A stretch of DNA of 64,000 bases from an uncultured Elusimicrobia bacterium (GCA_903830945.1 CAIKVT010000025.1:7816-71815); one strand, 5' to 3'. Positions 4,449-50,271 are shown, numbered from the stretch's first letter. Translations and numbers: made by a program. The notes: a model not told the origin generated them from the letters alone.

Positions 4449-4478
4449 GGCGCTCTGGCGCAATAGAGGGGGGGCGGC

Positions 4479-34584: not shown

Positions 34585-36446
34585 CTCCGCAAGAAGAGCT
34601 GCGCCATCGCTGGGGATACGACTCATTCAAGCCCCTACAGCGGGAAGCTATTGAGGTAGCACTTGCCGGGCGCGACTGTCTGGTTGTGTTGCCGACCGGA
34701 GGAGGAAAGAGCATTTGCTACCAGCTTCCCGCCGCGTTGGGCCGCGGGCTCGTCCTGGTCGTCTCCCCTCTTATCGCCCTCATGGACGACCAGGTCGCAG
34801 CGGCGCGAGAGGCGGGCTTGGCCGCCGACGCCCTTCACTCGAACCTGGAGGCCGGCCACCGCAGCGAGGCCTACAGGCGGCTGGCCGCAGGCAAGACGGA
34901 CCTCCTCTACGTAAGTCCCGAGCGCCTCCTCGTAGGAGACCTGCTTGAGGACGTCGCCGGGCGGCTGATCCTGATAGCGGTGGACGAGGCGCACTGCGTT
35001 TCGCATTGGGGCCATGAATTCCGGCCTGAGTACCGCCGCCTAGCTGAAGTCCTGGAGCGTTTTCCGAAGGCGGCGCGCATGGCCCTGACCGCGACGGCGA
35101 CGCCCGCGGTCCAGGAGGATGTCTGCGCCCAACTTGCGCTGCGGGCGCCTTCGCGCTTCATCGGCCATCCCGACCGCCCGAATCTGGTCTATCGCGCCTT
35201 CCCTCGCCGCGACCAGTCGGCGCAGGTGCTGGAGGTCGTGCGCCGTCATCCCGGCGAGGCAGGCATCGTCTACGCCCAGACGCGCAAGGATGTGGAGCGA
35301 TTGGCGGCGAAGCTTGAGGGGGAGGGGATTTCCTGCGCGGCTTACCACGCGGGCCTGCCCGCGGAGCGCAGACGGCGCGCCCAAGACGACTTCGTCAACG
35401 AGCGGCTGGATGTGGTCGTCGCCACTATAGCCTTTGGCATGGGCATCGACCTCTACAACGTCCGCTACGTCATCCACGCCAACACGCCGCGCTCGGTCGA
35501 GCATTATCAGCAGGAGTCGGGGCGTGCGGGCCGCGACGGGGGGCCTGCCGATTGCGTCCTGCTCTTCGCGGCCTCGGATCTCGCCTTGCATCGGGCTTTG
35601 GCGCTTAAAGACGGGGCTCTGGCTCCCGAACGCCAGTGCGTGCTCGAACGCCAGTTGCGCGAGATCGGCCGCTATGCCGTAGCACCCGTGTGTCGGCATC
35701 GCCTTTTGACCGAGCATTTCGGCGCGCCGTATCCACCCGAGGGGGCGAGCCGCAGCGGCGAAGGCTGCGCCGTCGGCTGTGCGGCCTGCGATGTTTGCCT
35801 TGGCGAAACAAAGAGACTTTCTGACGAGGATGCCCTGCTCATGGCCAGGAAAGTCTTGAGCGGGGCCTGGCGCGCGGGGGGGCGCTTCGGGACCGGTTAC
35901 GTCGTCAATATGCTTCTGGGACGCGGTGATGAGCGCATGACGCGCAACGGCCACGACTCGCTGCAGGTCTTCGGCCTGCTCGAGGAGTCCGGAGAGGCGG
36001 CCGTGCGTTCGTGGATAGACCAGCTCATCGTGCAGGATTTCCTGGAAGTCGTCGAGGAACGGGAGTATCCTCTCTTGCGCATCACGGAGGCGGGGAAGGC
36101 CTTGTGCCGCGACGCGGGGACGGTGCGCTTGGGCGTGCCGGTTCCTCCAGCGGCGCGCGGCAGGAAGAAATCAAAAGCTTTGAGAAAGAGCCCTGTTTCT
36201 GATCTATCGCCTGATGAGGAACTCTTCGAGCGCCTGCGCCGGCTTCGGCGCCTGATCTCGGGAAAGCTGGGCGTGCCGCCTTACGTTGTCTTCCACGACA
36301 GCGCCCTTGTGGAGATGGCCGCGCTAAAGCCGAGGACTCTGGACGCTTTCGGGGGCGTCAAAGGCGTCGGCGAGCGCAAGCTGGAGCGATATGGGGCCGC
36401 TTTCCTCAAGGTGATTGCCGGCGAGAGCCCGGACGCCGTCTGGTAG
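34581..36446 (+). CDS. recQ: ATP-dependent DNA helicase RecQ (helicase + RQC + HRDC)
   Basis: The start MTPQEELRHRWGYDSFKPLQREAI at 34581 forms an ATGA overlap. LVVLPTGGGKSICYQLPA, AVDEAHCVSHWGHEFRPEY and the Zn-finger cysteines CRHRLL...C..C..C are present. The C-terminal HRDC reads PYVVFHDSALVEMAALKP. Confidence 0.95.
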   Translation: MTPQEELRHRWGYDSFKPLQREAIEVALAGRDCLVVLPTGGGKSICYQLPAALGRGLVLVVSPLIALMDDQVAAAREAGLAADALHSNLEAGHRSEAYRRLAAGKTDLLYVSPERLLVGDLLEDVAGRLILIAVDEAHCVSHWGHEFRPEYRRLAEVLERFPKAARMALTATATPAVQEDVCAQLALRAPSRFIGHPDRPNLVYRAFPRRDQSAQVLEVVRRHPGEAGIVYAQTRKDVERLAAKLEGEGISCAAYHAGLPAERRRRAQDDFVNERLDVVVATIAFGMGIDLYNVRYVIHANTPRSVEHYQQESGRAGRDGGPADCVLLFAASDLALHRALALKDGALAPERQCVLERQLREIGRYAVAPVCRHRLLTEHFGAPYPPEGASRSGEGCAVGCAACDVCLGETKRLSDEDALLMARKVLSGAWRAGGRFGTGYVVNMLLGRGDERMTRNGHDSLQVFGLLEESGEAAVRSWIDQLIVQDFLEVVEEREYPLLRITEAGKALCRDAGTVRLGVPVPPAARGRKKSKALRKSPVSDLSPDEELFERLRRLRRLISGKLGVPPYVVFHDSALVEMAALKPRTLDAFGGVKGVGERKLERYGAAFLKVIAGESPDAVW

Positions 36447-36516
36447 CAATCATCCCTGACGGCGACGGCCGGATGATGCCGTCTATGGCCGGCTATTTTT
36501 AGAGCAGTTGGAATAG

Positions 36517-36572
36517 CCTTTAAGGGTTAGGCCGGAAAAATAACCCTTAAAGGTTATTTTTCATTCCGGCCC
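36517..36572 (+). promoter_or_regulatory. Two overlapping, mutually exclusive inverted repeats between recQ and gvpA (terminator/anti-terminator-like element or operator palindrome)
   Basis: Hairpin A is cctttaagggtta (36517-36529) / taacccttaaagg (36541-36553), a perfect 13 bp followed by ttattttt. Hairpin B is ggccggaaaaataacc (36530-36545) / ggttattttt-cat-tccggcc (36552-36572). The two share nucleotides 36530-36553. Confidence 0.4.
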
Positions 36573-36651
36573 AACATGGTACTTTAGCTTCAGCAACATG
36601 CGCCTTGGGCGCAGGGTGCGATGTGAAATCCGGAACAAGAGGTACAAAAAC

Positions 36652-36858
36652 ATGGCAGTAGAGAAAGCGATCGGTTCGTCCAGCTTGGTCGAAGTCATCG
36701 ACCGGATCCTTGACAAGGGCGTCGTGGTGGACGCGTGGGTCAGAGTATCGCTGGTAGGCATCGAGATTCTCGCGATCGAAGCCCGCGTGGTCGTGGCGTC
36801 CGTTGAGACGTACCTGAAGTACGCCGAAGCCATCGGCTTGACCGCAACAGCCGCCTAA
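36652..36858 (+). CDS. gvpA: Gas vesicle major structural protein GvpA
   Basis: [63 protein letters not shown] is the near-canonical GvpA sequence. The ATG at 36652 is an internal start within the track ORF. Confidence 0.97.
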
Positions 36859-37000
36859 GTCGCGGAAAGAAAGGGAATGCTTGCCGAGCCATCCTCAATC
36901 CGCCGAGTACGGGAAGAAAGCATGGTCCGCCAAGATTTCCTTTATTGCAGCGAACATCATTCAAGCACGGTTTCCTTAATATAGCGGGAGGATACGACCC

Positions 37001-37690
37001 ATGCCCGAGATCCTTGATGTGGAAAACGCCGTAGTAGACATCATCACCTCTCACGAGGCCCGCATTGATAATATCGGCTCACTCTTCGAGAACACCTACT
37101 TGGTTTTTAAGGATTTCCATGAGTCCCTGCAGGACACGAAGCGTGAAAGAGAAGAGATGCGCACGCAATTGCAGGACATCCTCACCCAAAACGAGCATCT
37201 GCGCAGGAAAGATTTCGACCGGATGATGCAGGCCATCCTGTCGGTCCAGGAAGGAAGAGAAAAGGAAGTGAAGAATCTGCTGAACGCTTACTTCAACGAG
37301 CAAAAAGAGATGTCCAAGACGATGCGGATAAACCTGGACGGCGTCAGGGAGTCCCTGGCTAAGGGCGAAGTCCAACGGATCAGGGCATTTCAAGAGCTGC
37401 TCAAGGACATCCTCGCCCGACAGGATGAAAGGAAAGCCGGGGTGACCGCCCAGCTTAAAGAATTCCAGGAAGAACAGAAAGCGGTGGCGTCCCGGCTCAA
37501 GGCTCTTTTATGCAAAGGGCGGGAGCTGCGCATAAAAGATCTTAAAGCAATGCTCAGCGAATTTAAAAGAAAAAGACTGCAAACGGCTGAATCCTGGAAT
37601 TGGCGCACCAGGCTGGGCCACTGCTCCGACGGAAGCCTCATCTCGTATCGAAATAATGATGCTCATGCCGCAAATGACGCGCTCAACTAA
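37001..37690 (+). CDS. Coiled-coil protein in the GvpC position (candidate outer-surface or scaffold gas-vesicle protein)
   Basis: Strong SD GGGAGGA. 229 aa, charged and helical. It carries recurring F-x3-8-[RK]-x-M-like segments (DFHESLQDTKREREEM, YFNEQKEM, EFQEEQKAV). No sequence match to cyanobacterial GvpC 33-aa repeats was recognised. Confidence 0.45.
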   Translation: MPEILDVENAVVDIITSHEARIDNIGSLFENTYLVFKDFHESLQDTKREREEMRTQLQDILTQNEHLRRKDFDRMMQAILSVQEGREKEVKNLLNAYFNEQKEMSKTMRINLDGVRESLAKGEVQRIRAFQELLKDILARQDERKAGVTAQLKEFQEEQKAVASRLKALLCKGRELRIKDLKAMLSEFKRKRLQTAESWNWRTRLGHCSDGSLISYRNNDAHAANDALN

Positions 37691-37717
37691 AATAAGTCAA
37701 CAACCGGGAGGAAGAAA

Positions 37718-38464
37718 ATGGGACTAGCCGATGACATGAAAAACATCACCGAGGGGATCACGGACTCTTATGCTTCACGCATAAGGGCGACGCGCGACCG
37801 TATAAAGGAAGTCGGGGAGTTGGCGGGCAACACCCAGAAAACAGTGCGCGACTTCGCATCCGAGCGCAAGCACATGGGGGCGGGCCAGGCCAAAGCCTTG
37901 GGGGAATTCGTGGGAACCCTGCGGGGCAACGTGGAGGATCTGAGAAAAGCCGCGGGCAGCATGATCCATGGCTTCCAAAAAGACCACAAAGCCATGGCCG
38001 CCGAGCTGAAGGAAAAGGCCGAAGCCCTCAGGGGATCCTTGGCCCAAGGCGAGGCCGACCGTATGAAAGACTACAAGGAGCTCCAGGCCGGCATCCAGGA
38101 AGTCCTTGGACAAGTGAGGAAGAGCGTCAAGGACATCAAGTCCCATGTCGCCGACAAGCTCGAGGAATTCTCCGGCAATCGCGCCATCATGAGCCAGGAA
38201 CTCAAGAAGGACCTGGTCAAGCATGTGGCTGACATCGCCAGGGAGACCAAGGCCGTGTTGGGCGAAGCCAGGACTCTGGTGGATGGGTTTTCGAGCGAAA
38301 GAAAAATGATGTCCGCCAACTGGCAGGGCATGGCCGCCTCCATGGCCAAGAAAAGAGGCGTCCAGCCGGCGGTTCAAACCGCGCCGGTTGCCGCGGAAAT
38401 CGTGAGACCAGAAGAGGCCAGGTCAAAGAAAAGGAAAGCGCATAAAAAGAGAGCGAAGAAGTAG
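37718..38464 (+). CDS. Coiled-coil repeat protein (second GvpC-position protein) with a basic C-terminal tail
   Basis: SD GGGAGGA. There are four copies of an xF-x3-[RHK]K/A-x-M motif: DFASERKHM, GFQKDHKAM, EFSGNRAIM and GFSSERKMM. The C-terminus is SKKRKAHKKRAKK. Confidence 0.45.
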   Translation: MGLADDMKNITEGITDSYASRIRATRDRIKEVGELAGNTQKTVRDFASERKHMGAGQAKALGEFVGTLRGNVEDLRKAAGSMIHGFQKDHKAMAAELKEKAEALRGSLAQGEADRMKDYKELQAGIQEVLGQVRKSVKDIKSHVADKLEEFSGNRAIMSQELKKDLVKHVADIARETKAVLGEARTLVDGFSSERKMMSANWQGMAASMAKKRGVQPAVQTAPVAAEIVRPEEARSKKRKAHKKRAKK

Positions 38465-38593
38465 GCTTTGACCGCGGCGAAGTCCCATCCTGCCCCCCGG
38501 GCCTAAGCCCGGGGGGCAGGGGAGACTTGAAATCGCGACCATACGCGAAATGTTCCGCGGCAAAGGCGGCATCACGAAAAGAGGTGTAAGAAA

Positions 38594-39508
38594 ATGATCG
38601 ATGAAATGACTACGGTGCTGGAGCCAACCCCCTTGCCGGATTTCGTGGAGACGAAACAAGTTAAGGACATCTCGCAGAGAGCGCTTTGCTATATCAAGGC
38701 CGGTTTCCCGGTCCATTTCCGGGGGATCTCAGGCAGCGGCAAGACCACTTTGGCCATGCACATCGCCGGCAAGCTGCTCAGGCCGGTGGTCATGATCCAT
38801 GGCGACGAGGAGTTCACCACTTCCGACCTGGTCGGCGGCGAATACGGCTACAAGATCAGGAAGGTCGTGGACCGCTTCATCTCCCGGGTCTTGAAGACCG
38901 AGGAGGACATGGTCAAGCGCTGGGTGGACAACCGCCTTACCGTTGCCTGCAAATACGGATTCACTCTCATCTATGACGAATTTACGCGCTCCCGGCCGGA
39001 GGCCAACAACATCCTGCTCTCCATCCTGCAGGAGAAGATGATGGATCTACCCGTGGGCCGGGGCGGAGAAGAACCATATTTGAAGGTCGATCCTGACTTC
39101 ACGGCCATATTCACGTCCAACCCGGAGGAGTATGCCGGGGTTCATCGCAGCCAGGACGCGCTGCGCGACCGGATGATAACCATGGACCTGGATTATTTCG
39201 ACTATGAAACGGAGGTCGCCATAACCCAGGCTAAATCCAAGCTTTCTAAGAAAAATTCAGAAACCATCGTCAATATCGTGCGGGGCTTGAGGGAATCCGG
39301 AAAGTGCGAGTTCGCACCCACGGTCCGCGGCTGCATCATGATCGCCAAGACGCTCAAAGTACAGGGCTTGACCCCGGCCCGGGCCAACGGCTCTTTTTCC
39401 CAGATGTGCCAGGATATCCTGGCCTCCGAGACCAGCCGGGTGGGCTCCAAGACGAATCAGGAGCGGGTCAAAGACATCGTCAAGGAACTCGTCACGAAAC
39501 ACAGCTAG
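38594..39508 (+). CDS. gvpN: Gas vesicle AAA+ ATPase GvpN (CbbQ/NirQ/NorQ/GvpN family)
   Basis: VHFRGISGSGKTTLAMHIA (Walker A), TLIYDEFTRS (Walker B) and ALRDRMITMDLDY. Its size and position after gvpA and the gvpC-like genes fit GvpN. Confidence 0.9.
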   Translation: MIDEMTTVLEPTPLPDFVETKQVKDISQRALCYIKAGFPVHFRGISGSGKTTLAMHIAGKLLRPVVMIHGDEEFTTSDLVGGEYGYKIRKVVDRFISRVLKTEEDMVKRWVDNRLTVACKYGFTLIYDEFTRSRPEANNILLSILQEKMMDLPVGRGGEEPYLKVDPDFTAIFTSNPEEYAGVHRSQDALRDRMITMDLDYFDYETEVAITQAKSKLSKKNSETIVNIVRGLRESGKCEFAPTVRGCIMIAKTLKVQGLTPARANGSFSQMCQDILASETSRVGSKTNQERVKDIVKELVTKHS

Positions 39509-39522
39509 CGGGAGACAAGGGC

Positions 39523-39702
39523 ATGGCACTGTTGCGCGTGTATTCCAGGATGGACGCTAAAAGTAAAATTACGCTGCCCCCGGGCATTCGCAAGGAGCTC
39601 GATGTCCGGCCGGGAGAAAAGTTGGAATTGAAGGTCGTGGGAATAAACAAAGCGAGGAAGCTTCTTATTTGTAAGACAAAAAGCGGGAGGCGCCTGCCAT
39701 GA
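39523..39702 (+). CDS. AbrB/MazE/SpoVT-type swapped-hairpin DNA-binding protein (59 aa)
   Basis: MALLRVYSRMDAKSKITLPPGIRKELDVRPGEKLELKVVG has the typical SpoVT-AbrB pattern (ItiPkeiReel.l..Gd.lel). SD GGAGA. An ATGA overlap links it to the next ORF. Confidence 0.6.
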   Translation: MALLRVYSRMDAKSKITLPPGIRKELDVRPGEKLELKVVGINKARKLLICKTKSGRRLP

Positions 39703-40001
39703 AAACAAGACGGTTGCCCAGTCTGCGCGAGATGAAGAGCATACGTTCCGTGGGCATACGCTCCATTCCCAAGGTACAAAGGTCAGGCTATCTGGACATG
39801 TACACGCTGGGCAGGGAGAAAGACCGGTTGGAAAACGAGATTTTCTCTTTGGACAAAAGGAGAAGCGCCGCCGCCAAACAATTAGACGGCGTCTTAAAGC
39901 GCCTCATCCAGCTCCAAAAGGAGACGCGCGAAGGTGAACCGGTCAGAACTCATAAAAGCATGCCCGCTAAACCCTTAAAGACCATGTCCATGAAATATTG
40001 A
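39699..40001 (+). CDS. Small basic coiled-coil protein (100 aa), unknown; possibly GvpV/GvpR-like
   Basis: YLDMYTLGREKDRLENEIFSLDKRRSAAAKQLDGVLKRLIQLQKE. Translationally coupled to the AbrB-like ORF. The family assignment is not verifiable from memory. Confidence 0.4.
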   Translation: MKTRRLPSLREMKSIRSVGIRSIPKVQRSGYLDMYTLGREKDRLENEIFSLDKRRSAAAKQLDGVLKRLIQLQKETREGEPVRTHKSMPAKPLKTMSMKY

Positions 40002-40059
40002 TCCGGTGTCAGGCCGGCAAGGGGAAAGGGCGTCGTCGCATAAAAAAAGGAGGCCTATC

Positions 40060-40599
40060 ATGGCAAAGAAAATAGAACCAAAGAAAGATGAAAACGTGGA
40101 CATTGATTTTGGGATGGGGAAATTGAGCCTGGGCGGTATCTTCGAGGGCGTCGGGAAATTGGTCGAGTTGGCCGCGAAGCTGCAGGAAGCGGGCGGCGAA
40201 ATCAAAAAGGAAGGCGAGATCGATTTGAGCCATCTCAAAAAAGGGATGAAGGGAGTTTTTGGGTTTTCCGTCAAGAGCCTGGCCGGGGGCAAGCAGGTCG
40301 TGGAACCTTTCGGCAACATCAAAAAAACAGCCGCCGGACCCAAGATCGATGACGAGCGCGAGCCCATCGTCGATATCTTCGACGAGAAAGAGGAGGTCCG
40401 GGTCTACGCCGAAATGCCCGGTGTCAACGAAGCGGATATTAAGTTGGATCTTAAGGGCGACATTTTAGACATCCGCGCCGGGACCGGCGACAGAAAATAT
40501 CATAAAGAAGTCCTGCTGCCGGCGAAAGTGTCGGCCGAGGCTCCTGTTCCGTCCTATAAAAACGGAGTCCTCGAAGTGAAACTCAAGAAATGCCCCTGA
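40060..40599 (+). CDS. Hsp20/alpha-crystallin-domain protein (GvpH-like small heat-shock protein)
   Basis: SD AAAGGAGG. The ACD reads PIVDIFDEKEEVRVYAEMPGVNEADIKLDLKGDILDIRAG...KYHKEVLLPAKV...SYKNGVLEVKLKK. Confidence 0.8.
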   Translation: MAKKIEPKKDENVDIDFGMGKLSLGGIFEGVGKLVELAAKLQEAGGEIKKEGEIDLSHLKKGMKGVFGFSVKSLAGGKQVVEPFGNIKKTAAGPKIDDEREPIVDIFDEKEEVRVYAEMPGVNEADIKLDLKGDILDIRAGTGDRKYHKEVLLPAKVSAEAPVPSYKNGVLEVKLKKCP

Positions 40600-41552
40600 T
40601 CGGACTTAAGGAAAGCGCGTTAAAGCTTATCCTGTTCGGCGGCAAGGGCGGCGTGGGGAAAACAACCTGCGCCGCCAGCGCCGGCCTTTTCTTAGCCGGG
40701 AATTTTAAGACCCTGCTGCTGTCCACGGACCCGGCGCATTCCATATCAGACAGCTTGGGGCAACATATCGGTGACGCCATAACGGAGGTCAAGGACGTAC
40801 GGAATCTGAGCGCTCTTGAAATCAACGCGGAAAAAGCCCTTTCTGAATTCAAAATAGAATACGAAGAAGAGATCAAGAAAATACTGGACACCTCGACTAA
40901 TTTGGACAACGAAGACATCGAGTCTGTTTTTTCCTTGTCCATCCCCGGTCTGGATGAAGTCATGGGCTTTAAAACCATAATGGACCTCATGGACGAAGGG
41001 AAATTCGGGAAATACATAGTCGATACCGCGCCGACCGGCCATGCCCTGCGGCTTCTGACCATGCCCCAGCTCCTGGATGATTGGGTCAAGATGCTGGCCA
41101 AGCTCAGATGGAAGTATCGATACATGATCAAGACTTTCAGCGGGAAATACGCTCCCGACGAAGCCGACGATTTCCTTTTGAACATGAAAAAAACGGTGAA
41201 AAAGATCGAAAGCCTGCTCAAGGATCAGAGCCGCTGCGAGTTCATCGCCGTCACCATCCCCGAAGATATGGCCATCCAGGAAACCACGCGTTTGATCCAC
41301 AGTTTGAGCGAGTATGGCGTGAAAGTCAAGCAATTGGTCATCAACAATGTCATAGAGCCTCGAGATTGCGCTTTTTGTCAAGAGCGCCGGAAAGAGCAGG
41401 AGAAGTACATAAGTCAGATCAGGAAAAAATTCAGCAGTCTCAATACGACCTTGTCTTTTTTGCGTCCCCGAGAAGTCAAAGGCGTAAATGCCTTGAGCGC
41501 TTTCGCCGGGCAGTTGGCGCAGGGCGACCCCGTAAACCGGATGGTGGCTTAA
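40590..41552 (+). CDS. Get3/TRC40/ArsA-family P-loop ATPase (single-domain, with CxxC motif)
   Basis: LILFGGKGGVGKTTCAAS (deviant Walker A), LLLSTDPAHSISDSLG and VDTAPTGHALRLL. CAFCQERRKEQEKYISQI resembles the Get3 zinc/dimerisation CxxC segment. It overlaps the hsp20 end by 10 nt. Confidence 0.85.
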   Translation: MPLIGLKESALKLILFGGKGGVGKTTCAASAGLFLAGNFKTLLLSTDPAHSISDSLGQHIGDAITEVKDVRNLSALEINAEKALSEFKIEYEEEIKKILDTSTNLDNEDIESVFSLSIPGLDEVMGFKTIMDLMDEGKFGKYIVDTAPTGHALRLLTMPQLLDDWVKMLAKLRWKYRYMIKTFSGKYAPDEADDFLLNMKKTVKKIESLLKDQSRCEFIAVTIPEDMAIQETTRLIHSLSEYGVKVKQLVINNVIEPRDCAFCQERRKEQEKYISQIRKKFSSLNTTLSFLRPREVKGVNALSAFAGQLAQGDPVNRMVA

Positions 41553-41555
41553 CCC

Positions 41556-43724
41556 ATGAATAAGGATATGACCTTGAAAGTCAAAGAAGCCCAGGCCAAG
41601 GACGTGGGCCGGGCCATCGTGCGGATCGACCCCGAGGATATGAAGACTCTGGGCGCCGAAGTCGGCGATGTCCTGGAGATCGAAGGCAAGCGAAAGACGC
41701 CGGCCAAGGTCATGCCCTGCTACGCCGAGGAGCGAGGCAAGGGCATCATCCAGATGGACGGCATAGGCCGCGAAAACGCGCAGATCGGGTTGGGTGAAAA
41801 GGTGAAGATCCGAAAGATCGTTCCCAAGCCCGCCGGAAGGATCACGCTGCTTCCTTTATCTCTTTCCAGCCTGCCGCAAAGCCAGGACACCAAATACCTC
41901 GGTTCTCTCATCGCCGGGCTTCCTGTTTCGAGCGGCGACCGGGTCAGGGCCACGCTCTTCGGCTCACGGTCCTGTGATTTCAAGGTGTCGGAGACCGTTC
42001 CCGACGGCGCGGTCCTGATCAATCCGGAGACCATAATAAGAATGACGGAGACTAAAAAAATAGAGAAGGAAGGGCCGGCCAAGGGGGGGGCGACCAAGAT
42101 ATCCTACGAGGACATCGGCGGACTCGGCTCGCAGATCCGCAGGATCCGTGAGATGATCGAGTTGCCCTTGCGCTATCCCCAGATATTCGAAAGATTGGGC
42201 ATAGACGCGCCCAAGGGCGTCTTGCTTTACGGCCCGCCCGGAACCGGGAAAACCCTGATCGCCCGGGCCGTGGCCAATGAAACCGATGCTTATTTCAACC
42301 ATATCTCCGGTCCTGAGATCATGGGCAAGTTCTACGGCGAGAGCGAGGGCCGCTTGCGCGGCGTGTTCGAAGAGGCGCAGGCCCATGCCCCGGCCATCAT
42401 CTTCATAGACGAGATAGACGCCATCGCTCCCAAACGCGAGGACATGGGCGGCGAAAAGCAGGTGGAGCGGCGCGTGGTGGCGCAGCTCTTGGCGCTTCTG
42501 GACGGCCTGGAGTCCCGCGGCCAGGTCATCGTGATAGGCGCGACCAACATCCCCAACACTCTCGACCCCGCGCTGCGCCGGCCGGGGCGCTTCGACCGGG
42601 AGATCTCCGTCCCCATCCCGGACAAGAACGGGAGGCTGCAGATCCTGCAGATCCACACCCGGGGCATGCCCTTGGCCAAGGATGTGAGCCTGGAGAAACT
42701 GGCTGAGATCACGCACGGATTCGTGGGCGCCGATCTCGAGGCCCTGGCCAGGGAAGCGGCCATGTCGGCTTTAAGGCGGATCCTGCCGGACCTCGACCTT
42801 GCGATGGCGGATATCCCCTACGAGACCTTGCTCAAGCTCGAAGTCACCATGGACAATTTCGGCGACGCCATGAAGGAGGTGGAGCCCTCGGCCATTAGGG
42901 AATTCTTCGTGGAAGTTCCCGATGTGAAATGGGAAGAAGTCGGCGGGCTGGAGAACATCAAGGAAGAGCTTAAGGAAGCGGTCGAGTGGCCGCTCAAGTA
43001 CGCGGATATCTTCAAAAAGGCCGGCGCGCAGCCGCCCAAGGGCATACTCCTTTACGGCCCCCCGGGCACGGGTAAGACCTTGCTGGCCAAGGCCGTGGCC
43101 AGCCAGACGGGCGTTAATTTCATCTCGGTCAAGGGGCCCAGCCTCATCTCGAAATTCGTCGGAGAAAGCGAGAAGTCCCTGCGCGAGGTGTTCAAGACCG
43201 CCAAGCAGGCCTCGCCCACCATCCTGTTCTTCGACGAGATCGACGCCCTGGTCCCCAGAAGAGGCTCGGCCAGCACGGACGCGCATGTGACCGAGCGCGT
43301 GATCAGCCAGTTCCTGGCCGAAATGGACGGCATCGAGGAGCTCAAGGGCGTGGTGGTCTTGGCCGCCACCAACAGGCTCGACTTGATCGAGCCGGCGATC
43401 CTGCGCAGCGGCCGGTTCGACCTGCTCATGGAGCTTCCCAAGCCGGATCTTAAAACCCGTGAGGAAATATTCAAGATACACGTCAGGGGCAAGCCGCTCG
43501 CCAAAGACGTCGATCTTAAGGAATTGGCGAAAGCGACCGATGGCAAGGCCGGCTCCGACATCGAGCTGATCTGTCGCAAGGCCGTCATGCTGGCGCTCAG
43601 GGAATATATAAACAGTGATGCCGACGTCAAAACGCTCGAAACGAAATTCGACCTCAGGATCCTGAAAAGGCATTTCGAAGAGGCGAATAAAGTGGATCGA
43701 GCCCGGCAGCAACTGGAAAAATAG
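41556..43724 (+). CDS. Cdc48/p97/VAT-type AAA+ ATPase (N domain + D1 + D2)
   Basis: The N domain reads [37 protein letters not shown]. There are two Walker A sites ([20 protein letters not shown] and [20 protein letters not shown]). Walker B sites are IIFIDEIDA and [12 protein letters not shown] regions are present ([26 protein letters not shown]). Confidence 0.9.
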
Positions 43725-43735
43725 AGGATCAAAAC

Positions 43736-44785
43736 ATGGCCAAGACAGGGAAATATCTTTATGGGATCATCGCCTCTTCCGCGCCGGAATTCTCAAGGCC
43801 CGGGGCAATCGTGGACTTCGCGGACATCTACGTCGTCCCCTGTCAGGACCTGGCGGCAGTGGTCGGCGACTCTGAAATAGTCGATTACCAGCACATGCGC
43901 AAGGACGCCCTGGCCATGCTCCTGGTCCGGCATCAGAAAGTCATCGAAAAGATCATGGAGCTGGGGCACGCCGTCATCCCCATAAGGCTGGGGACATTCG
44001 CCGCGGATGACGCCGCGGTCCGGGACATCCTGAGCAAGGGCCACCGCCTGATCCATGAAATCCTTCCGAAAATCAATGATAAGATAGAAATCGACGTCGC
44101 CGCCGTCTGGAAGGATTTCGGCCCCGCGATCAAGGAGATCGGCCAGCATCCGGAGATAATGGAGCTGAAAAAAACCCTGCTCGGCAACCCTCAGGGTGTG
44201 ACCATGGACGACCAGATGAAGGTCGGCCTCGCGGTCAAGAAACTATTGGACGCCAAAAGAGAACATGTCGCGAACTTGATACAAGCCGCTTTAAAGGATT
44301 TGAGCCATGACTGCCGGGCTCATGAGCTCATGGACGATCAAATGGTCGTGAACTGCGCCTTTCTTATTAGCCGGGCCGAACAAGAGGGATTTTACGCCCG
44401 GGTGGAAGGCCTGGACGCGGAATTGGCCGGGAAGCTGAATTTCAGATGCATCGGCCCGCTGCCGCCGTACAGTTTTTACACCCTGGAGATAAAGAAGATG
44501 GATTTCCAGGAGCTGGAGTGGGCCCGCAACAAACTCGGGCTCTTGAGCCCGGTCGCGACTAAAAACGAGATCAAGAAAGCCTATCACCGCGCCGCCATCT
44601 CCTTCCACCCCGACAAGAATCCTGACACGCCGGGCATGGATAAAGAATTCGGCATCGTCAAAAGAGCGCATAAAATACTGGCGGACTATTGCCTGGCCAG
44701 CGAGCAAACTCGGCCTGGAGAAGACATCCCCTTTGGCGAAGAGCGATTCCAGGAGCGTTCGATTTTGGTGAAGGTGGGGGAATAG
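43736..44785 (+). CDS. GvpF/GvpL-family protein fused to a C-terminal J domain (DnaJ-like, HPD motif)
   Basis: N-terminus KYLYGIIASS...YVVPCQDLAAVVGDSE...HQKVIEKIMELGHAVIPIRLGT and ...FRCIGPLPPYSF form the GvpL/F fold pattern. The C-terminus WARNKLGLLSPVATKNEIKKAYHRAAISFHPDKNPDTPGMDKEFGIVKRAHKILAD is a J domain. Confidence 0.8.
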   Translation: MAKTGKYLYGIIASSAPEFSRPGAIVDFADIYVVPCQDLAAVVGDSEIVDYQHMRKDALAMLLVRHQKVIEKIMELGHAVIPIRLGTFAADDAAVRDILSKGHRLIHEILPKINDKIEIDVAAVWKDFGPAIKEIGQHPEIMELKKTLLGNPQGVTMDDQMKVGLAVKKLLDAKREHVANLIQAALKDLSHDCRAHELMDDQMVVNCAFLISRAEQEGFYARVEGLDAELAGKLNFRCIGPLPPYSFYTLEIKKMDFQELEWARNKLGLLSPVATKNEIKKAYHRAAISFHPDKNPDTPGMDKEFGIVKRAHKILADYCLASEQTRPGEDIPFGEERFQERSILVKVGE

Positions 44786-45556
44786 ATGACGCTGAGCAAG
44801 GACGGAAGATACATCTATTGCATCATCGGCACGAAACAGGAAAGGAACTTCGGCCCTATCGGCTTGAATGGCCGCGAGGTTTTGACCATAGGTTATGAGG
44901 ACCTTGCCATGGTGGTCAGCAACCATCCCTTGGCCAAGCTCGTGGTCAACCAGGACAACATGGTGGCCCATGAAAAGGTCATCGAGGAGGTCATGAAGGA
45001 GTTCGACGGCGTGCTCCCGGTGAGATACGGAACCGTTGCCGCGGATGCCGATGAAATAAGGAACCTTCTGGACCGCAGGCGTCGGGAATTCAAGATCGCC
45101 TTGCGTGATCTCGACCACAAGGTGGAATTGGGCGTCAAAGGGATATGGCCGGACATGGATGCCATCTTCAAGGAAGTCGTGAAAGACAACAAGGCCATCA
45201 AGAAACTCAAGGAGAAGATCCAAAACGACGGGGGCACCAAGAACATCCCGGCGAAAATGGAAGCGGGCAGAATGGTCGAAGCGGCGCTGCAGAAAAAGAA
45301 AGCGGACGAGGCCGAGGATATCGTGGAAGCCCTCAGAAAGGCCTCCGTCAACTTCAAGCTCAACAAGACCACGGGCGACAATATGTTCATGAACGCCGCT
45401 TTCCTGGTGGATAAGGGGCGGGAGAAAGAATTCGACAACATCATGGATGATTTGGGCGAAAAGCACAAAAAGCGGATAAAGTTCCTCTATGCCGGTCCCT
45501 TGCCTACTTTCAACTTCGTCAATATCGCCATTTATCCAGAGGCCTGGGAGAAATAG
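44786..45556 (+). CDS. GvpF/GvpL-family gas vesicle protein (paralog 2)
   Basis: GRYIYCIIGTKQERNFGPIGLNGREVLTIGYEDLAMVVSNHP...HEKVIEEVMKEFDGVLPVRYGT...LYAGPLPTFNF. Confidence 0.85.
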   Translation: MTLSKDGRYIYCIIGTKQERNFGPIGLNGREVLTIGYEDLAMVVSNHPLAKLVVNQDNMVAHEKVIEEVMKEFDGVLPVRYGTVAADADEIRNLLDRRRREFKIALRDLDHKVELGVKGIWPDMDAIFKEVVKDNKAIKKLKEKIQNDGGTKNIPAKMEAGRMVEAALQKKKADEAEDIVEALRKASVNFKLNKTTGDNMFMNAAFLVDKGREKEFDNIMDDLGEKHKKRIKFLYAGPLPTFNFVNIAIYPEAWEK

Positions 45557-46342
45557 ATGGAAGCGGAATTCAAAGAAGGCAGATACATCTACTGCATCAT
45601 AGCGTCGAAGCAGCCGCAATCCTTCGGGCCTTTGGGGATCGGCGGGAGAAGCGACGATCTTTACACGATCTCCTTCAAGGATGTCGCCGCGGTGGTGAGC
45701 AATTCTCCCATCAAAAGCTATTCGCTCTCCCACGAAAATCTGATCGCCCATGAGAAGGCCATCGAAGAGGTCATGAAGGGGCACACCGTTTTGCCGGTCC
45801 GGTTCTGCACCATCGCCGCCGATGACGCGAAAATCAAGGAGATACTGGAAAAGGCGCACGACAAGATCCGCGGCTTATTGAAGGCCATGTCGGGCAAGAA
45901 AGAGCTGGGTTTGAAAGCTGTTTTTAAAGACGTCATTTACCAGGACATCGTGGCGGAGCACGGCGACATCCGGACCTTGAAGGAAAAGATAGCCGTCCTG
46001 CCGCCCGCCCAGACGCTGACCGCCCGCAGGCAGATAGGCCAGATGGTCGAAGTCGCCCTGAATCAAGCCCGGGAGCATTATAAAGGCATCATCATGGATG
46101 GCCTGTCGCCCCTGGCGACGGAAGTCAAAATCAACCGCAACTACGGCGAGATGATGGTTGTCAGCGCCGCCTTTTTGGTAGACGAAAAAAAGGAGACGAG
46201 CTTCGATCAGCGGGTGGACCAGCTGGGCGCGAAATACGTCGACAAGATCAAGTTCAAGTATGTGGGGACATTGCCGCCGTTTAATTTCGTCAACCTGGTC
46301 ATTAATACGCAGACGGCGGATCTCACCGGCACCGCATCTTAA
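45557..46342 (+). CDS. GvpF/GvpL-family gas vesicle protein (paralog 3)
   Basis: GRYIYCIIASKQPQSFGPLGIGGRSDDLYTISFKDVAAVVSNSP...HEKAIEEVMKGHTVLPVRFCT...KYVGTLPPFNF. Confidence 0.85.
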   Translation: MEAEFKEGRYIYCIIASKQPQSFGPLGIGGRSDDLYTISFKDVAAVVSNSPIKSYSLSHENLIAHEKAIEEVMKGHTVLPVRFCTIAADDAKIKEILEKAHDKIRGLLKAMSGKKELGLKAVFKDVIYQDIVAEHGDIRTLKEKIAVLPPAQTLTARRQIGQMVEVALNQAREHYKGIIMDGLSPLATEVKINRNYGEMMVVSAAFLVDEKKETSFDQRVDQLGAKYVDKIKFKYVGTLPPFNFVNLVINTQTADLTGTAS

Positions 46343-46346
46343 GCCC

Positions 46347-46586
46347 ATGTTCCTGATCGACGATGTCGTGCTCTCGCCGCTGAAAGGCCTCCTTTGGCTG
46401 GGCGAGAAGATCGGAGATCTGTGCGATAAGGAGATATCCGACGATGGCCGCGTGATGGAAAGACTCATGGCCCTCCAGCTCAAGTTTGAATTGGATGAGA
46501 TAAGCGAGGAAGAATACTCCAAGCAGGAAAAAGAGATCTTGGCGCAATTGGAAGCCATCAGAAAAATGAAGGAAGCGGGGGGATGA
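46347..46586 (+). CDS. gvpG: Gas vesicle protein GvpG
   Basis: MFLIDDVVLSPLKGLLWLGEKIGDLCDKEISDD...LMALQLKFELDEISEEEYSKQEKEILAQLEAIR is the canonical GvpG pattern. Internal start within the track ORF. Confidence 0.85.
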   Translation: MFLIDDVVLSPLKGLLWLGEKIGDLCDKEISDDGRVMERLMALQLKFELDEISEEEYSKQEKEILAQLEAIRKMKEAGG

Positions 46587-46587
46587 G

Positions 46588-46851
46588 ATGCCCGACATCG
46601 AGGACGCCGGTAAAGCGGCCGTCGAGTTCTTAAAAAAGAACCTCAAGATCAAAGAGGCGAAGGTCGTCAAGGCGACGAAGGCCGGCCTGGGCTGGGAAAT
46701 CGAGGCGGAAGTTTATGAGGAGAGCTCTTTCATGAAATCCCTCGGGCTGGCCACGAAAGTCCAGGACCGGAACCTCTACGTCGTCAAGCTCGACGACGGC
46801 CTTGAGGTCGTATCCTACGGGCGCAAGGGGCTCATGCCCGCGAGCGAGTAA
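46588..46851 (+). CDS. gvpO: Gas vesicle protein GvpO-like
   Basis: AGKAAVEFLKKNL...KATKAGLGWEIEAEVYEES...RNLYVVKLDDGLEVVSYGRK fits the GvpO core pattern (gW.v.vEvvE...YevelD..Gel..y.R) recalled from memory. Confidence 0.6.
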   Translation: MPDIEDAGKAAVEFLKKNLKIKEAKVVKATKAGLGWEIEAEVYEESSFMKSLGLATKVQDRNLYVVKLDDGLEVVSYGRKGLMPASE

Positions 46852-46866
46852 GCCGGCGGGGTCGAA

Positions 46867-47670
46867 ATGGAATCGGAAAAGGAACTGCTATATTTATATT
46901 GCGTCGTCGATCAGGCGCCTGATCTTAAAGAAGGCCGGGATTGGTTCGACAAGCCTTTTTTCGTCCAACACCAAGGCCTTTATGCCGTGGTCAGCCGGGT
47001 CTCGGGCTCCACATTCGACGAAGAGAATCTGAAGAAGAATCTCGGCGACCTGGAATGGGTGAAGATTCACGTCATCACGCATGAACAGGTCATAGAGGAC
47101 GTCATGGAGCGCGCCTGCGTGGTCCCTTTCAAGTTCGCCACGCTGTTTAAAAGCGAGGACAGCTTGAAGTCCATGCTCGCCGAGCGCGCCGGCATGCTTA
47201 AAGAAACCCTGCGCAGACTGCAAGGTCACGAGGAATGGGGAGTGAAGATCTATTGCGATATGAGCAGGCTGCGGGCTTGGCTTGCCCAAAACGCGGAGAT
47301 TTTAAAAATCGACAGCGAGATCGGATCGGCCGCGCCGGGCAGGTCGTTCATTTTGCGGAAGAAAAAAGAGGCGCGGCTTGACACCTTTACGACCGCGAAG
47401 CTCAATGAATGCGGCCAGGCGAGTTTCGACAGGCTCAAAACACTCAGCGCCCGCACCCGCATCAATAAATTGCTGCCGGAGGAAGTGACGGAGAGAAAAG
47501 AGGACATGATCTTAAACGCCGCGTTCTTGATCGATAAAAACAAAGTCAAGACCTTTATCGAGACGGTCGGCCAACTCAAGGCGCAACAGGAAAGCAACGG
47601 GCTTTCCTTTGACTGCACGGGCCCTTGGCCGCCCTTTAACTTCTGCGATTTCTCCGAAGGGACCAACTAG
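46867..47670 (+). CDS. GvpF/GvpL-family gas vesicle protein (paralog 4)
   Basis: LLYLYCVVDQAPD...QHQGLYAVVSRVS...HEQVIEDVMERACVVPFKFATLF...DCTGPWPPFNF. Confidence 0.8.
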   Translation: MESEKELLYLYCVVDQAPDLKEGRDWFDKPFFVQHQGLYAVVSRVSGSTFDEENLKKNLGDLEWVKIHVITHEQVIEDVMERACVVPFKFATLFKSEDSLKSMLAERAGMLKETLRRLQGHEEWGVKIYCDMSRLRAWLAQNAEILKIDSEIGSAAPGRSFILRKKKEARLDTFTTAKLNECGQASFDRLKTLSARTRINKLLPEEVTERKEDMILNAAFLIDKNKVKTFIETVGQLKAQQESNGLSFDCTGPWPPFNFCDFSEGTN

Positions 47671-47671
47671 C

Positions 47672-47893
47672 ATGAGCAGCCGCGACGTCGTCTTCGAATC
47701 CAAAGAGGTGACCCTTCTGGAGATCCTGGACCGGGTGCTGGATAAAGGCGTGGTCATCTCCGGTGATCTGGTCATTTCCGTGGCGGAAGTCGACCTGGTC
47801 TATATAGGCTTAAAAGCGCTGATCAGCTCCGTGGAAACCATGGAACGCTTGCGAGGCGCCCCGTTTTATGGGCCCATGCAGGAGCCGAATTGA
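47672..47893 (+). CDS. GvpA-fold minor structural protein (GvpJ/GvpM/GvpS-like, 73 aa)
   Basis: KEVTLLEILDRVLDKGVVISGDLVISVAEVDLVYIGLKALISSVETMERL. Confidence 0.85.
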   Translation: MSSRDVVFESKEVTLLEILDRVLDKGVVISGDLVISVAEVDLVYIGLKALISSVETMERLRGAPFYGPMQEPN

Positions 47894-48609
47894 TGGCCGC
47901 ATATATCTACGGCGTCATAGATTCCAACGACCGGCTCGATGCTGCCATGACCGGGCTAAAAGGAACTTTGCTCCGCAATCTCCCCTATCGCGACATGGGT
48001 GTAATCCTCAGCGATTTCGACAAGAGAATCGCGCCTATAACCAAAGATCACGCATTCGAGCATGAGAAGGTCGTGGAAAGGCTCATGGAGCATTTCACCG
48101 TTCTGCCGTTCCGGTTCCCCACTGTTTTCGATAATGAAGAAGGCGTTCTTTCCATGATGAGCGCCCGTTATGACAATTTCACGGACAATCTCAGAAGGCT
48201 CCGCGGCAAGATGGAATTCGGCATAAAAGTCATCTGGCCAGGAGACAAGATGAGAATGCGCCTCACCCCGGATCAAAACAGTTCCCCTCTGCTCGCGTCG
48301 GATACGCCCGTAAAAAACTTCCTCAAGAAAAAGTTTCAAGAATACCAAAAAGAGAAAAAAATAGAGAATGAGGCTGAGGCTCGCATCGCTTTGGTGGATG
48401 GATTTTTCGATGGATTGGCCGCGGAGAAGAAACTGGAGAAGCTGAAGACCGAGAATCTGCTCTTATGCGCCTTTTATCTGGTCGAAAAGGGAAAGCAGGA
48501 AGACTTCAGGCAAGCCTTCGAGCGATTGAGGTCTTCTTCGGGCGAATTCAAATATCTGTTCAGCGGCCCCTGGCCGCCCTATAATTTCATTAAAACGGCC
48601 AATTCATGA
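47893..48609 (+). CDS. GvpF/GvpL-family gas vesicle protein (paralog 5)
   Basis: AAYIYGVIDSND...LPYRDMGVILSDFD...HEKVVERLMEHFTVLPFRFPTVF...FSGPWPPYNF. The ATG at 47893 immediately follows the upstream TGA. Confidence 0.8.
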   Translation: MAAYIYGVIDSNDRLDAAMTGLKGTLLRNLPYRDMGVILSDFDKRIAPITKDHAFEHEKVVERLMEHFTVLPFRFPTVFDNEEGVLSMMSARYDNFTDNLRRLRGKMEFGIKVIWPGDKMRMRLTPDQNSSPLLASDTPVKNFLKKKFQEYQKEKKIENEAEARIALVDGFFDGLAAEKKLEKLKTENLLLCAFYLVEKGKQEDFRQAFERLRSSSGEFKYLFSGPWPPYNFIKTANS

Positions 48610-48941
48610 GCCAAGAGGTCAAGACGGATTCCCCCGGAGATTTCCTCGAGGAGCTGGAAAAAACGCGGGATAGTCTTCCGAAAAGGATCGCGGCTAACCC
48701 CCAAAACGTGGAAAAGGGCCTGGCCAAGCTGGTCCTGACGCTCATCGAACTCATCCGTAAGCTAATGGAAAAACAGGCCATGCGCCGGATCGAGAACGGA
48801 TCTTTGAGCGAAGCCGAGGTCGAGCGGGTCGGCGAGACTCTGATGAAGCTGGAAAACAAGATGGTGGAGCTCAAGCAGATATTCGGGCTTGAAGATGAAG
48901 ACCTTAATTTAAATCTTGGCCCATTGGGAAAGCTGCTTTAG
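48606..48941 (+). CDS. gvpK: Gas vesicle protein GvpK
   Basis: NPQNVEKGLAKLVLTLIELIRKLMEKQAMRRIENGSLSEAEVERVGETLMKLENKMVELKQIFGLEDEDLNLNLGPLGKLL is the canonical GvpK sequence. Confidence 0.9.
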   Translation: MSQEVKTDSPGDFLEELEKTRDSLPKRIAANPQNVEKGLAKLVLTLIELIRKLMEKQAMRRIENGSLSEAEVERVGETLMKLENKMVELKQIFGLEDEDLNLNLGPLGKLL

Positions 48942-48950
48942 CAAACAGCC

Positions 48951-49214
48951 ATGAGTCCCGCGGAAGAGCCCATGACGGCCTGCCCGAAATTCCAGAAACA
49001 AGCGGCCCTGCTCAAGGACATACGAGACAAAATCTACAAAGCTGAAGAAGCGCTGAAGCTGGGGCTGGCAGGGCAACTGCAGGAAGAAATCAAAGAGCTG
49101 TTTTCCTGTTTGGATTACAAGAAGGCCAGCGCGGATTGCAAGAAGTGCCGCTGTGTCGCCGAGCTGCGCAATAAAATGGCGAACCGCGTCATCAATAGAG
49201 AAAAGGCATTGTAA
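48951..49214 (+). CDS. Small Cys-containing hypothetical protein (87 aa) within the gvp cluster
   Basis: Helical and charged, with cysteines at ACPKF, FSCLD and DCKKCRCV. No recognised family. It fits the operon spacing. Confidence 0.4.
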   Translation: MSPAEEPMTACPKFQKQAALLKDIRDKIYKAEEALKLGLAGQLQEEIKELFSCLDYKKASADCKKCRCVAELRNKMANRVINREKAL

Positions 49215-49231
49215 TAAGAGAGGATCACTCC

Positions 49232-49531: not shown

Positions 49532-49554
49532 TCCAGCCGTAACGGGAGGCGCCT

Positions 49555-50241: not shown

Positions 50242-50271
50242 CATTTAATCCGATAATTTGTATAGTATGGT

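Follow-up and report, generated by a model that had tools for sequence, protein, structure and literature searches.

A putative proteostasis module with Cdc48-like and Get3-like ATPases in a gas-vesicle gene cluster of an uncultured Elusimicrobia bacterium

The DNA considered here, referred to throughout as the window, is a stretch of 64,000 nucleotides from an uncultured Elusimicrobia bacterium (GCA_903830945.1, CAIKVT010000025.1:7816-71815), and ∼36.6-50.2 kb of its + strand is filled by a single gas-vesicle (gvp) cluster. Four consecutive genes within this cluster, and a fifth at its end, are the components of a candidate proteostasis module, and all five lie on the + strand. The first (40060-40599) encodes a GvpH-like small heat-shock protein (sHsp) of 179 residues, in which a conserved N-terminal region is followed by an alpha-crystallin domain. 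The second (40590-41552) encodes a single-domain ATPase of 320 residues with the Get3/TRC40/ArsA fold and of the archaeal type, and the third (41556-43724) an AAA+ protein of the Cdc48/VAT type, 722 residues in length and with an N-D1-D2 architecture. The fourth (43736-44785) encodes a member of the GvpF/L family with a C-terminal J domain, hereafter GvpF::J. The fifth, u228 (49555-50241), encodes a protein of 228 residues belonging to an unnamed family. The cluster as a whole begins with gvpA, two coiled-coil open reading frames (ORFs), gvpN, and an ORF of ∼100 residues, after which come the genes for the sHsp, the Get3-like ATPase, the Cdc48-like protein, and GvpF::J. It continues with two genes for GvpF and with those for GvpG, a weakly matching GvpO, GvpL/F, GvpJ, a further GvpL/F, and GvpK, and it closes with an 87-residue Cys-rich ORF, a second GvpA/J-like gene, and u228.

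The ATG of the Get3-like gene overlaps the stop of the sHsp gene by 10 nucleotides, a 3-nucleotide gap separates the Get3-like and Cdc48-like genes, and an 11-nucleotide gap lies between the latter and the gene for GvpF::J. These are exactly the spacings given in an earlier interpretation made without database searches (the sequence-only reading). It had also placed the four genes between gvpN and the gvpF/L block, which is where they are, except that the conserved ∼100-residue ORF (39699-40001) separates gvpN from the sHsp gene. Its four family assignments were all upheld in Pfam and NCBIfam searches, with scores above the curated profile cut-offs, and the motifs that it quoted are present in the Get3-like protein, GKGGVGKT at residue 18, DTAPTGH at 145, and CAFC at 260.

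The Cdc48-like protein, the most conserved large protein of the cluster, matches CDC48_N (99.3 bits), CDC48_2 (44.5 bits), and two AAA domains, and scores 943.8 bits with the CDC48 model TIGR01243 (cut-off 802.65). Its best match in the PDB is Thermoplasma acidophilum VAT (5g4f, E = 3e-223), which aligns over the full length and ranks ahead of p97; to generic archaeal and alphaproteobacterial Cdc48 proteins it is only 45-53% identical. The GPPGTGKT motif is found at residues 226 and 501, DEID at 283 and 558, and GRFD at 344 and 619, and across 76 orthologues the two Walker motifs and the arginine-finger region show no variation in either ring. The pore loop of D1 reads K-F-Y-G, with the Phe kept in 74 and the Tyr in all 76 of these sequences, and that of D2 consists of a Tyr or Phe (76 of 76), then Ile, Val, or Leu, and then Gly. 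On the basis of intact catalytic motifs and VAT-like aromatic pore loops, the Cdc48-like enzyme and the Get3-like enzyme described below both look active.

The C-termini of the 76 orthologues vary, the commonest three-residue endings being rich in lysine or arginine, and none of the endings listed has the penultimate tyrosine of the HbYX tail that docks onto the 20S proteasome. HbYX is a feature of the archaeal Cdc48-20S machine and not of the whole Cdc48 family; given that it is lacking here, docking on a 20S proteasome would not be expected. One unusual relative of the Cdc48-like protein, P0005 (1007 residues, from an ENA contig of 3697 bp), has an additional AAA module after N-D1-D2, making three in all behind the N domain. 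It may be a genuine protein with three rings or else a product of faulty assembly, and it is not a Get3 fusion.

The Get3-like ATPase scores 270.6 bits with ArsA_ATPase and 273.5 bits with TIGR00345 (GET3_arsA_TRC40, cut-off 135). The GKGGVGKT P-loop, a deviant Walker A motif, and DTAPTGH are both invariant in 64 sequences. Its best single-domain matches in the PDB are the archaeal Get3 structures 3zq6 (E = 7e-56) and 3ug6, and the CAFC motif at residues 260-263 aligns with CEFC of 3zq6. Cys 263 is conserved in 64 of 64 sequences and Cys 260 in 57 of 64, and the two are predicted to be the pair for zinc-dependent dimerization that marks the Get3 branch. ArsA proper was considered and rejected: TIGR04291 gives 124.9 bits against a cut-off of 650, the protein is a single domain of 320 residues rather than an A1-A2 tandem, and Escherichia coli ArsA aligns just to its N-terminal half (residues 14-162). 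The median length of the orthologues is 313 residues (n = 63), and no ars genes were found near the Get3-like gene. Apparent ArsA-Cdc48 and sHsp-ArsA fusions of 1039 and 502 residues, respectively, proved to be artefacts of ORF extension, both ORFs holding stop codons. The sequence-only reading had likened the role of this ATPase to the delivery of tail-anchored proteins, a notion that was not sustained, for a hydrophobicity scan detected no tail-anchor-type C-terminal transmembrane segment in any cluster protein, clients encoded elsewhere in the genome being possible. The most hydrophobic 19-residue segments in the cluster are those of GvpA (1.91) and GvpJ (1.88).

The sHsp gene has an AGGAGG ribosome-binding site 7 nucleotides before its ATG. 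In the ORF starting at 40006, residues 123-195 match the HSP20 profile (27 bits, cut-off 20.8); Pfam ArsA_HSP20 gives 23.6 bits (cut-off 22.5) and the NCBIfam model for archaeal Hsp20 137.8 bits, the cut-off in this case being 140. Pfam GvpH (PF05455) gave no match at E < 0.01. That profile does match (1.4e-6) the protein annotated as GvpH by the Prokaryotic Genome Annotation Pipeline that precedes Cdc48 in the Methylosinus plasmid pMSC49b, and the sHsp of the window is 32% identical to this protein over 161 residues (E = 7e-22). The alignment indicates that the sHsp is homologous to methanotroph GvpH over its full length.

In GvpF::J, the GvpL_GvpF domain (PF06386, 187.6 bits) is complete, covering profile positions 1-244 of 245, and is joined to a J domain (DnaJ, PF00226) that scores 46.9 bits against a cut-off of 27.8. 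The HPD motif, at residue 291, is retained in all 62 complete orthologues, and together with the profile match it predicts that the J domain recruits Hsp70; no Hsp70 gene is encoded in the cluster. The protein ends in a conserved hydrophobic tail of the form ILVKV/LILVKIK, whose resemblance to an Hsp70-binding peptide is offered here as speculation.

For u228 there was no Pfam or NCBIfam match above cut-off, and all 1228 proteins of its family are annotated as hypothetical. His 11, Asp 15, Asp 67, Glu 108, Glu 116, the pair Arg 150-Asp 151, and His 176 are invariant. The AlphaFold2 model has a predicted local distance difference test score of 89, and its comparison with the PDB produced no fold match (best E 0.18, template-modeling score ∼0.2). 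Its candidacy as a hydrolase or metalloprotease partner of the TraB/PrgY/GumN type (TIKI-like, PF01963) was examined and set aside, with 13.7 bits against a cut-off of 26.8 and no support from the fold; sub-threshold matches to PF01963 occur in 14 of 29 orthologues, the best at E 6.4e-4. Homologues of u228 lie directly between GvpH and Cdc48 on methanotroph gvp plasmids (31-34% identity, E 1e-28 and 8e-24), and positions are recorded for homologues at L084:8396-8977 and L082:6376-6933. The company that it keeps suggests that u228 is probably the fifth member of the module.

To place the module in a wider context, one genome per GTDB species was scanned with the Cdc48-like protein, which provided 294 confirmed relatives, and the best 80 loci were inspected, their Cdc48 orthologues being 67-89% identical to the window protein (68-89% over the best aligned segments). 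The proteins of the window's cluster were then mapped onto these loci, and the denominators given below are the loci that were informative for each. This survey was anchored on Cdc48, and a second one, described later, on u228, rather than on gvpA or gvpN. All 80 loci with a Cdc48 orthologue sit in gvp clusters. By the record titles of those who submitted the metagenome-assembled genomes (MAGs), they come from Elusimicrobiota (the closest), Omnitrophota, Ignavibacteriales, Planctomycetota, Bacteroidota, Lentisphaerota, Verrucomicrobiota, Kiritimatiellota, Cloacimonadota, Saganbacteria, Nitrospinota, Spirochaetales, and delta/Syntrophorhabdales MAGs, so that about a dozen phylum-level labels are represented among loci with this arrangement.

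Gene order around Cdc48 is strikingly constant. The GvpF::J orthologue is directly downstream in 61 of 61 loci, the sHsp gene lies no more than two genes upstream in 65 of 65, and the Get3-like gene is directly upstream in 61 of 68, the sHsp gene abutting Cdc48 in the other seven. Further out, gvpN (55 of 55) and gvpA (50 of 55) are found upstream and gvpG (50 of 50) and gvpK (44 of 50) downstream. A chance insertion, the outcome that the sequence-only reading had set against its own proposal, is thus not what related genomes display, the genes remaining syntenic with gvp in 61-65 of 61-68 informative loci. The matrices of pairwise identity for Cdc48, GvpN, Get3, the sHsp, and GvpF::J, calculated over 45 loci, correlate with r = 0.88-0.94 (0.92 for GvpN versus Cdc48), indicating that the five genes have moved as a unit; conservation is highest for Cdc48, whose pairwise identity averages 75% and is nowhere below 67%. 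As judged from these comparisons, the module is inherited jointly with a single, widely distributed type of gvp cluster that appears to have been passed on horizontally.

Cdc48 is also encountered in gvp clusters of other types. No orthologue of the window's cluster type above 60% identity was present among the PLSDB plasmids. The gvp plasmids of the cultured methanotrophs Methylocella tundrae T4 (p1) and Methylosinus sp. C49 (pMSC49b) end in GvpH, a u228 homologue, and CDC48, the last being 50-53% identical to the window protein and forming a clade of its own. The stand-alone Cdc48 genes of Methylobacterium and Rhizobium have neither sHsp nor gvp neighbors. In the metagenome survey anchored on u228, 79 of at least 477 relatives were inspected. 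Where at least 5 kb was available on both sides (n = 13), Cdc48 and the sHsp were present in 13 loci each and gvp genes in 12; where at least 5 kb was available downstream (n = 27), the corresponding numbers were 23, 25, and 23.

In the metagenomic loci, the sHsp, Cdc48, and u228 stay together through at least five gene orders, namely GvpJ/M-like - sHsp - u228 - Cdc48; u228 - sigma-54 response regulator - sHsp - Cdc48 - GvpF/L - GvpF/L - GvpA - GvpN; sHsp - Cdc48 - u228; sHsp - Get3 - Cdc48 - u228; and GvpF::J - u228 - sHsp. That the co-occurrence survives such extensive shuffling is strong evidence of a functional link. By gene content, the conserved core is the sHsp, Cdc48, and u228, to which Get3 and the J domain are frequent add-ons. 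The module of four put forward in the sequence-only reading consequently holds as regards synteny and requires revision on two counts, for Get3 and the J domain are not universal and u228 had been overlooked.

Several individual loci deserve mention. At L149 (8603-10009) the gene for an NtrC-type sigma-54 response regulator overlaps both the u228 and the sHsp genes, and a sigma-54-dependent activator is encoded at L084:1-97; such activators accompany Cdc48-containing gvp clusters. Locus L081 (Cdc48 93% identical) has an extra gene of 114 residues before gvpN (4359-4703) with a weak match to the DnaJ-type zinc finger (CXXCXGXG), and this gene is absent from the window. At L138:109-4900 (- strand), a gvp cluster that includes Cdc48 has a second, compact gvp cluster at its back, which consists of gvpA, gvpN, gvpF/L, and gvpG and has a neighboring pair of ArsA-like matches at its end. 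The ArsA-like pair may correspond to the two-domain ArsA reported in 2010 (PMC2963123). Finally, the Natrinema thermotolerans plasmid CP031304 (L083:4756-7265) carries an overlapping Hsp20-Cdc48 gene pair with no gvp genes, and its sHsp is not GvpH-like and is unrelated to that of the window beyond the crystallin fold. The sHsp-Cdc48 pair may be a more general archaeal two-gene cassette.

Of the remaining genes in the window's cluster, gvpN (38594-39508, + strand) encodes the canonical gas-vesicle AAA+ protein (TIGR02640, 337.8 bits) and is regarded as context rather than as part of the module. Membership of the adjacent ORF (39699-40001, + strand), which encodes a coiled-coil protein of ∼100 residues, is uncertain. 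Pfam and NCBIfam profile searches returned no family for it; many related loci have a tblastn match at the equivalent place, and the pattern RSIPK..RS.YLDLY..EK.RLEKE and a C-terminal KTM.L.Y are common to 28 complete orthologues. Homology to the ORF that follows gvpN in Methylosinus was rejected, as BLASTP produced no alignment and the likeness is one of pattern and position only. Between gvpA and gvpN are two genes for coiled-coil proteins of 229 and 248 residues (37001-37690 and 37718-38464, + strand), the second with a sub-threshold Apolipoprotein match. Their position is kept across the 80 loci at identities of just 24-79%, and their function may be analogous to that of GvpC, which forms the outer scaffold. 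The 87-residue Cys-rich ORF between gvpK and the second gvpA/J-like gene occupies 48951-49214 (+ strand). Five GvpF/L paralogues are encoded in the interval 43736-48609 (+ strand), model clusters usually having ∼2.

The G+C content is 0.51-0.60 over the gvp cluster (36000-50500) and 0.64-0.66 in the flanking 34-36 kb and 52-54 kb bins. This difference, combined with the spread of the arrangement over phyla, suggests horizontal transfer of the whole cluster, and the location of its closest relatives (Cdc48 86-89%) in Elusimicrobiota MAGs is read in the same sense. A sigma-54 promoter was sought upstream of gvpA, and the single match in the whole window (10037), fewer than expected by chance, is not near the cluster. 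The cluster is flanked on the + strand by genes at 32783-33898, 50272-51405, and 51490-54441, the flanking products being a probable Fic-domain protein, recognized by inspection from an HPFxxGNGR motif, an AAA_14/DUF4143 ATPase, and a fusion of CheB/CheR with PAS. The sequence of the window is found again in several metagenomes, and the downstream neighbors recur on other metagenome contigs of the same organism.

With the assignments correct, the synteny with gvp genes strict, the co-evolution with gvpN close, and a J domain fused to GvpF, the best reading of the module is a proteostasis role dedicated to gas vesicles. On balance, and with modest confidence, we believe that it holds, unfolds, or extracts shell proteins of the GvpA family. 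The sHsp and an archaeal-type Get3 dimer would serve as holdases, shielding the hydrophobic segments of GvpA, GvpJ, or GvpM-like proteins before their incorporation into the wall. The GvpF domain of GvpF::J would bind GvpA or the nascent vesicle, with the J domain recruiting the host Hsp70 (DnaK). The VAT-like Cdc48 hexamer would thread polypeptides through its aromatic pore loops, so that shell protein that has been wrongly assembled, has aggregated, or has collapsed is unfolded or pulled out for re-use or clearance, and u228 would act as a conserved partner of the sHsp and Cdc48. This division of labor is drawn from family biochemistry; which proteins are the substrates, whether the action serves assembly or removal, and which components touch one another are all predictions.

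Several considerations weigh against this assignment. The case for it is assembled from gene context and family biochemistry, the sequence data fit assembly-side chaperoning and disassembly alike, and no protease gene is encoded next to the unfoldase. Of 68 loci with the window's type of cluster, 7 lack Get3, just 5 of the 79 loci anchored on u228 gave a J-domain match, and both Get3 and the J domain are missing from other Cdc48-containing gvp cluster types, including the methanotroph plasmids. Moreover, the model organisms Anabaena, Bacillus megaterium, Serratia, and Halobacterium all make gas vesicles, and their clusters are not known to encode a Cdc48, a Get3, or a J domain, so that gas-vesicle assembly does not as a rule require the module.

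The alternative that survives best employs the same parts and differs only in direction. Regulated disassembly, which we regard as possible and as clearly less probable than a general proteostasis role, would have Cdc48 pull GvpA from intact or collapsed vesicles, with the sHsp, Get3, and J-recruited Hsp70 receiving the subunits. Non-phototrophic cells, which are unable to collapse their vesicles by turgor, could in this way sink when required and salvage the protein. The Cdc48/VAT family consists of extractors and unfoldases, and the aromatic D1 loop resembles that of VAT, a strong unfoldase. GvpN, the AAA+ protein of assembly, is always present as well (55 of 55), indicating that Cdc48 contributes something extra and does not stand in for the motor of growth. 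According to record titles, most of the host MAGs were obtained from lakes, groundwater, and a fen, and gas-vesicle degradation is acknowledged to be an unsolved matter (PMC10903477). The L149 locus can be read in both directions: its u228, response-regulator, sHsp, and Cdc48 genes overlap or are closely spaced, which is compatible with signal-controlled expression, but the chaperone genes also precede gvpA, as would suit chaperones made before the shell protein. A set so rich in holdases (sHsp, Get3, and J domain) fits assembly-side chaperoning equally well, and no protease gene is adjacent. A more specific version, an ATP-driven dismantling machine in which Cdc48, targeted by GvpF::J and/or u228, threads GvpA out of a wall that otherwise almost nothing destroys and passes it to the sHsp, Get3, and Hsp70 for re-use in many bacteria, is advanced a shade more tentatively still. 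It would represent active, reversible control of buoyancy; no bacterial Cdc48 would have had a defined substrate before, and Get3 would acquire a client outside the membrane.

In haloarchaea, the NTPase GvpD lowers the level of the activator GvpE, and the two form a regulatory pair (PMC6107691). By analogy, the target of Cdc48 might be a transcription factor, or an assembly factor in limiting amount, whose unfolding or inactivation would set vesicle number, and the sigma-54-dependent response regulator between u228 and the sHsp in one architecture, like the sigma-54 activator upstream of the Methylosinus cluster, is in keeping with such a scheme. We nonetheless consider it unlikely, for Cdc48 is not homologous to GvpD, no regulator is among the genes identified in the window's cluster or in orthologous clusters of the same type, and the constant companions of Cdc48 are chaperones (sHsp, Get3, and J domain) rather than DNA-binding proteins.

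The Get3/TRC40/ArsA family shares the SIMIBI fold and the deviant Walker A motif with ParA and MinD. The Get3-like protein could accordingly be imagined to target or position something, either delivering a Gvp protein to the cytoplasmic membrane or spacing vesicles in the manner of ParA or MinD, the rest of the module being unrelated chaperones. It is a bona fide member of the family by its TIGR00345 score, and its nearest solved relatives are archaeal Get3 homologues. The same score and the Get3-specific CxxC favor Get3 over the ParA type, however, and transmembrane segments of the tail-anchor type are absent from all cluster proteins. In addition, its gene is translationally coupled to that of the sHsp, and it is dispensable in 7 of 68 loci and absent from other cluster types. 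We hold this explanation to be doubtful, marginally more so than a regulatory one. Finally, that a general stress cassette has simply hitch-hiked in a mobile gvp island, as the Natrinema pair (which reveals that the sHsp-Cdc48 pairing is not unique to gvp clusters) and the G+C content below that of the flanks might suggest, is most improbable given that all 80 orthologous loci lie in gvp clusters, that the association outlives repeated shuffling of gene order, that the J domain is fused to a Gvp protein, and that the sHsp is GvpH-like over its full length, that of Natrinema being unrelated beyond the crystallin fold.

A proteostasis role dedicated to gas vesicles, by contrast, would bear on several matters of wider concern. 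Proteins of the GvpA family are very hydrophobic, gas vesicles dissolve solely in 80% formic acid (PMC6107691), and the solubilization of GvpA and the degradation of vesicles have been named as open problems (PMC10903477). For both, namely how GvpA is kept soluble and delivered to the growing wall and whether cells possess a means of degrading vesicles, the module would provide named candidates. It is distributed over hundreds of species (294 confirmed Cdc48 relatives, of which the best 80 were inspected) and occurs in cultured methanotrophs that are amenable to gene knock-out. Gas-vesicle clusters serve as acoustic reporter genes, and in E. coli aggregation of the shell protein makes most of them toxic or prevents them from working (PMC10344784; PMC12848028). 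Excess shell protein is proteotoxic in that host, and relief comes from making the assembly factors first (PMC12848028); a cluster-encoded set of holdases and an unfoldase could be a portable remedy. For AAA+ biology, bacterial Cdc48 would gain a physiological substrate, and for Get3 biology there would be a client that is not tail-anchored.

Part of the module has been anticipated. Castillo and Saier reported in 2010 that ArsA homologues and hsp20 occur inside gvp clusters and proposed that they "energize" a step of biogenesis (PMC2963123), and a 2017 study of cyanobacteria described an ArsA-Gvp co-evolving gene cluster (PMC5464585). The reported hosts are Bacteroidetes/Chlorobi, a deltaproteobacterium, cyanobacteria, and Acidobacteria (PMC2963123; PMC5464585). 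GvpN is the only AAA+ protein that a structural review of 2024 names for gvp clusters (PMC10903477). In the searchable, non-subscription literature, we found no paper linking Cdc48/VAT/p97, Get3 by name, or a J domain to bacterial gvp clusters and no report of u228 in them, and database annotation calls these genes just "CDC48 family AAA ATPase" or "hypothetical protein." The description of the system as undescribed in the sequence-only reading thus appears to remain apt for the Cdc48-like ATPase and the J-domain fusion and has to be withdrawn for ArsA/Get3 with hsp20 (PMC2963123, PMC5464585). The presence in gvp clusters of Cdc48, the GvpF::J fusion, and u228 appears to be new, with the pairing of Get3 and the sHsp partly foreseen.

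The clusters of the 2010 report resemble that of the window in placing an ATPase of the ArsA/Get3 fold and hsp20 among gvpN, gvpF/L, gvpG, gvpJ, and gvpK (PMC2963123). The gvp-linked ArsA described there is a two-domain protein of ∼600 residues, whereas that of the window has a single domain, 320 residues, and archaeal Get3 as its nearest relative, and the report makes no mention of a Cdc48-type ATPase, a J-domain GvpF, or a 228-residue protein. In the haloarchaeal system, GvpH prevents aggregation of GvpM, and vesicles made without it are fragile (PMC6107691); GvpF and GvpL bind GvpA and may chaperone it (PMC10903477). The window shares these elements in that its sHsp is homologous to an annotated GvpH and GvpF::J holds a full GvpL_GvpF domain. 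No energy-dependent partners have been described for the haloarchaeal cluster, whereas in the window Get3 and Cdc48 supply the sHsp with a pair of ATPases to which it is coupled, and a GvpF carries a J domain.

Get3d is a documented fusion of Get3 with an alpha-crystallin domain, found in bacteria and plastids, in which the Get3 fold and an sHsp-type domain work as one unit (PMC10248533). Its crystallin domain is the basis of the Pfam ArsA_HSP20 model that the sHsp of the window matches, but in the window the two are separate, translationally coupled genes. Archaeal Get3 (E 7e-56) is also a much nearer relative of the Get3-like protein than is 6bs3 (E 3e-11), a 394-residue chain labeled "Anion transporter" that we take to be a Get3d-type protein from Nostoc.

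With archaeal VAT (5g4f), which works with the 20S proteasome, the Cdc48-like protein has in common the N-D1-D2 arrangement and a D1 pore loop with two aromatic residues, F-Y in the window and Y-Y in VAT. It differs in a clade-specific two-residue insertion, in the lack of HbYX, and in its hosts, which are bacteria and for the most part have no 20S proteasome.

A final comparison is with the network formed by sHsps, Hsp70 with its J-proteins, and ClpB (Hsp104). There the sHsp holds the client, the J domain brings in Hsp70, and a two-ring AAA+ protein threads the polypeptide out. The module would follow the same logic, the parallel being one of functional analogy. ClpB has an M domain, whereas the motor in the window is of the Cdc48/VAT type with an N domain. 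Hsp70 is likewise not part of the cluster, and, in contrast to the ClpB network, the J domain is anchored to a client-specific GvpF, and a Get3-type holdase and u228 are added to the set.

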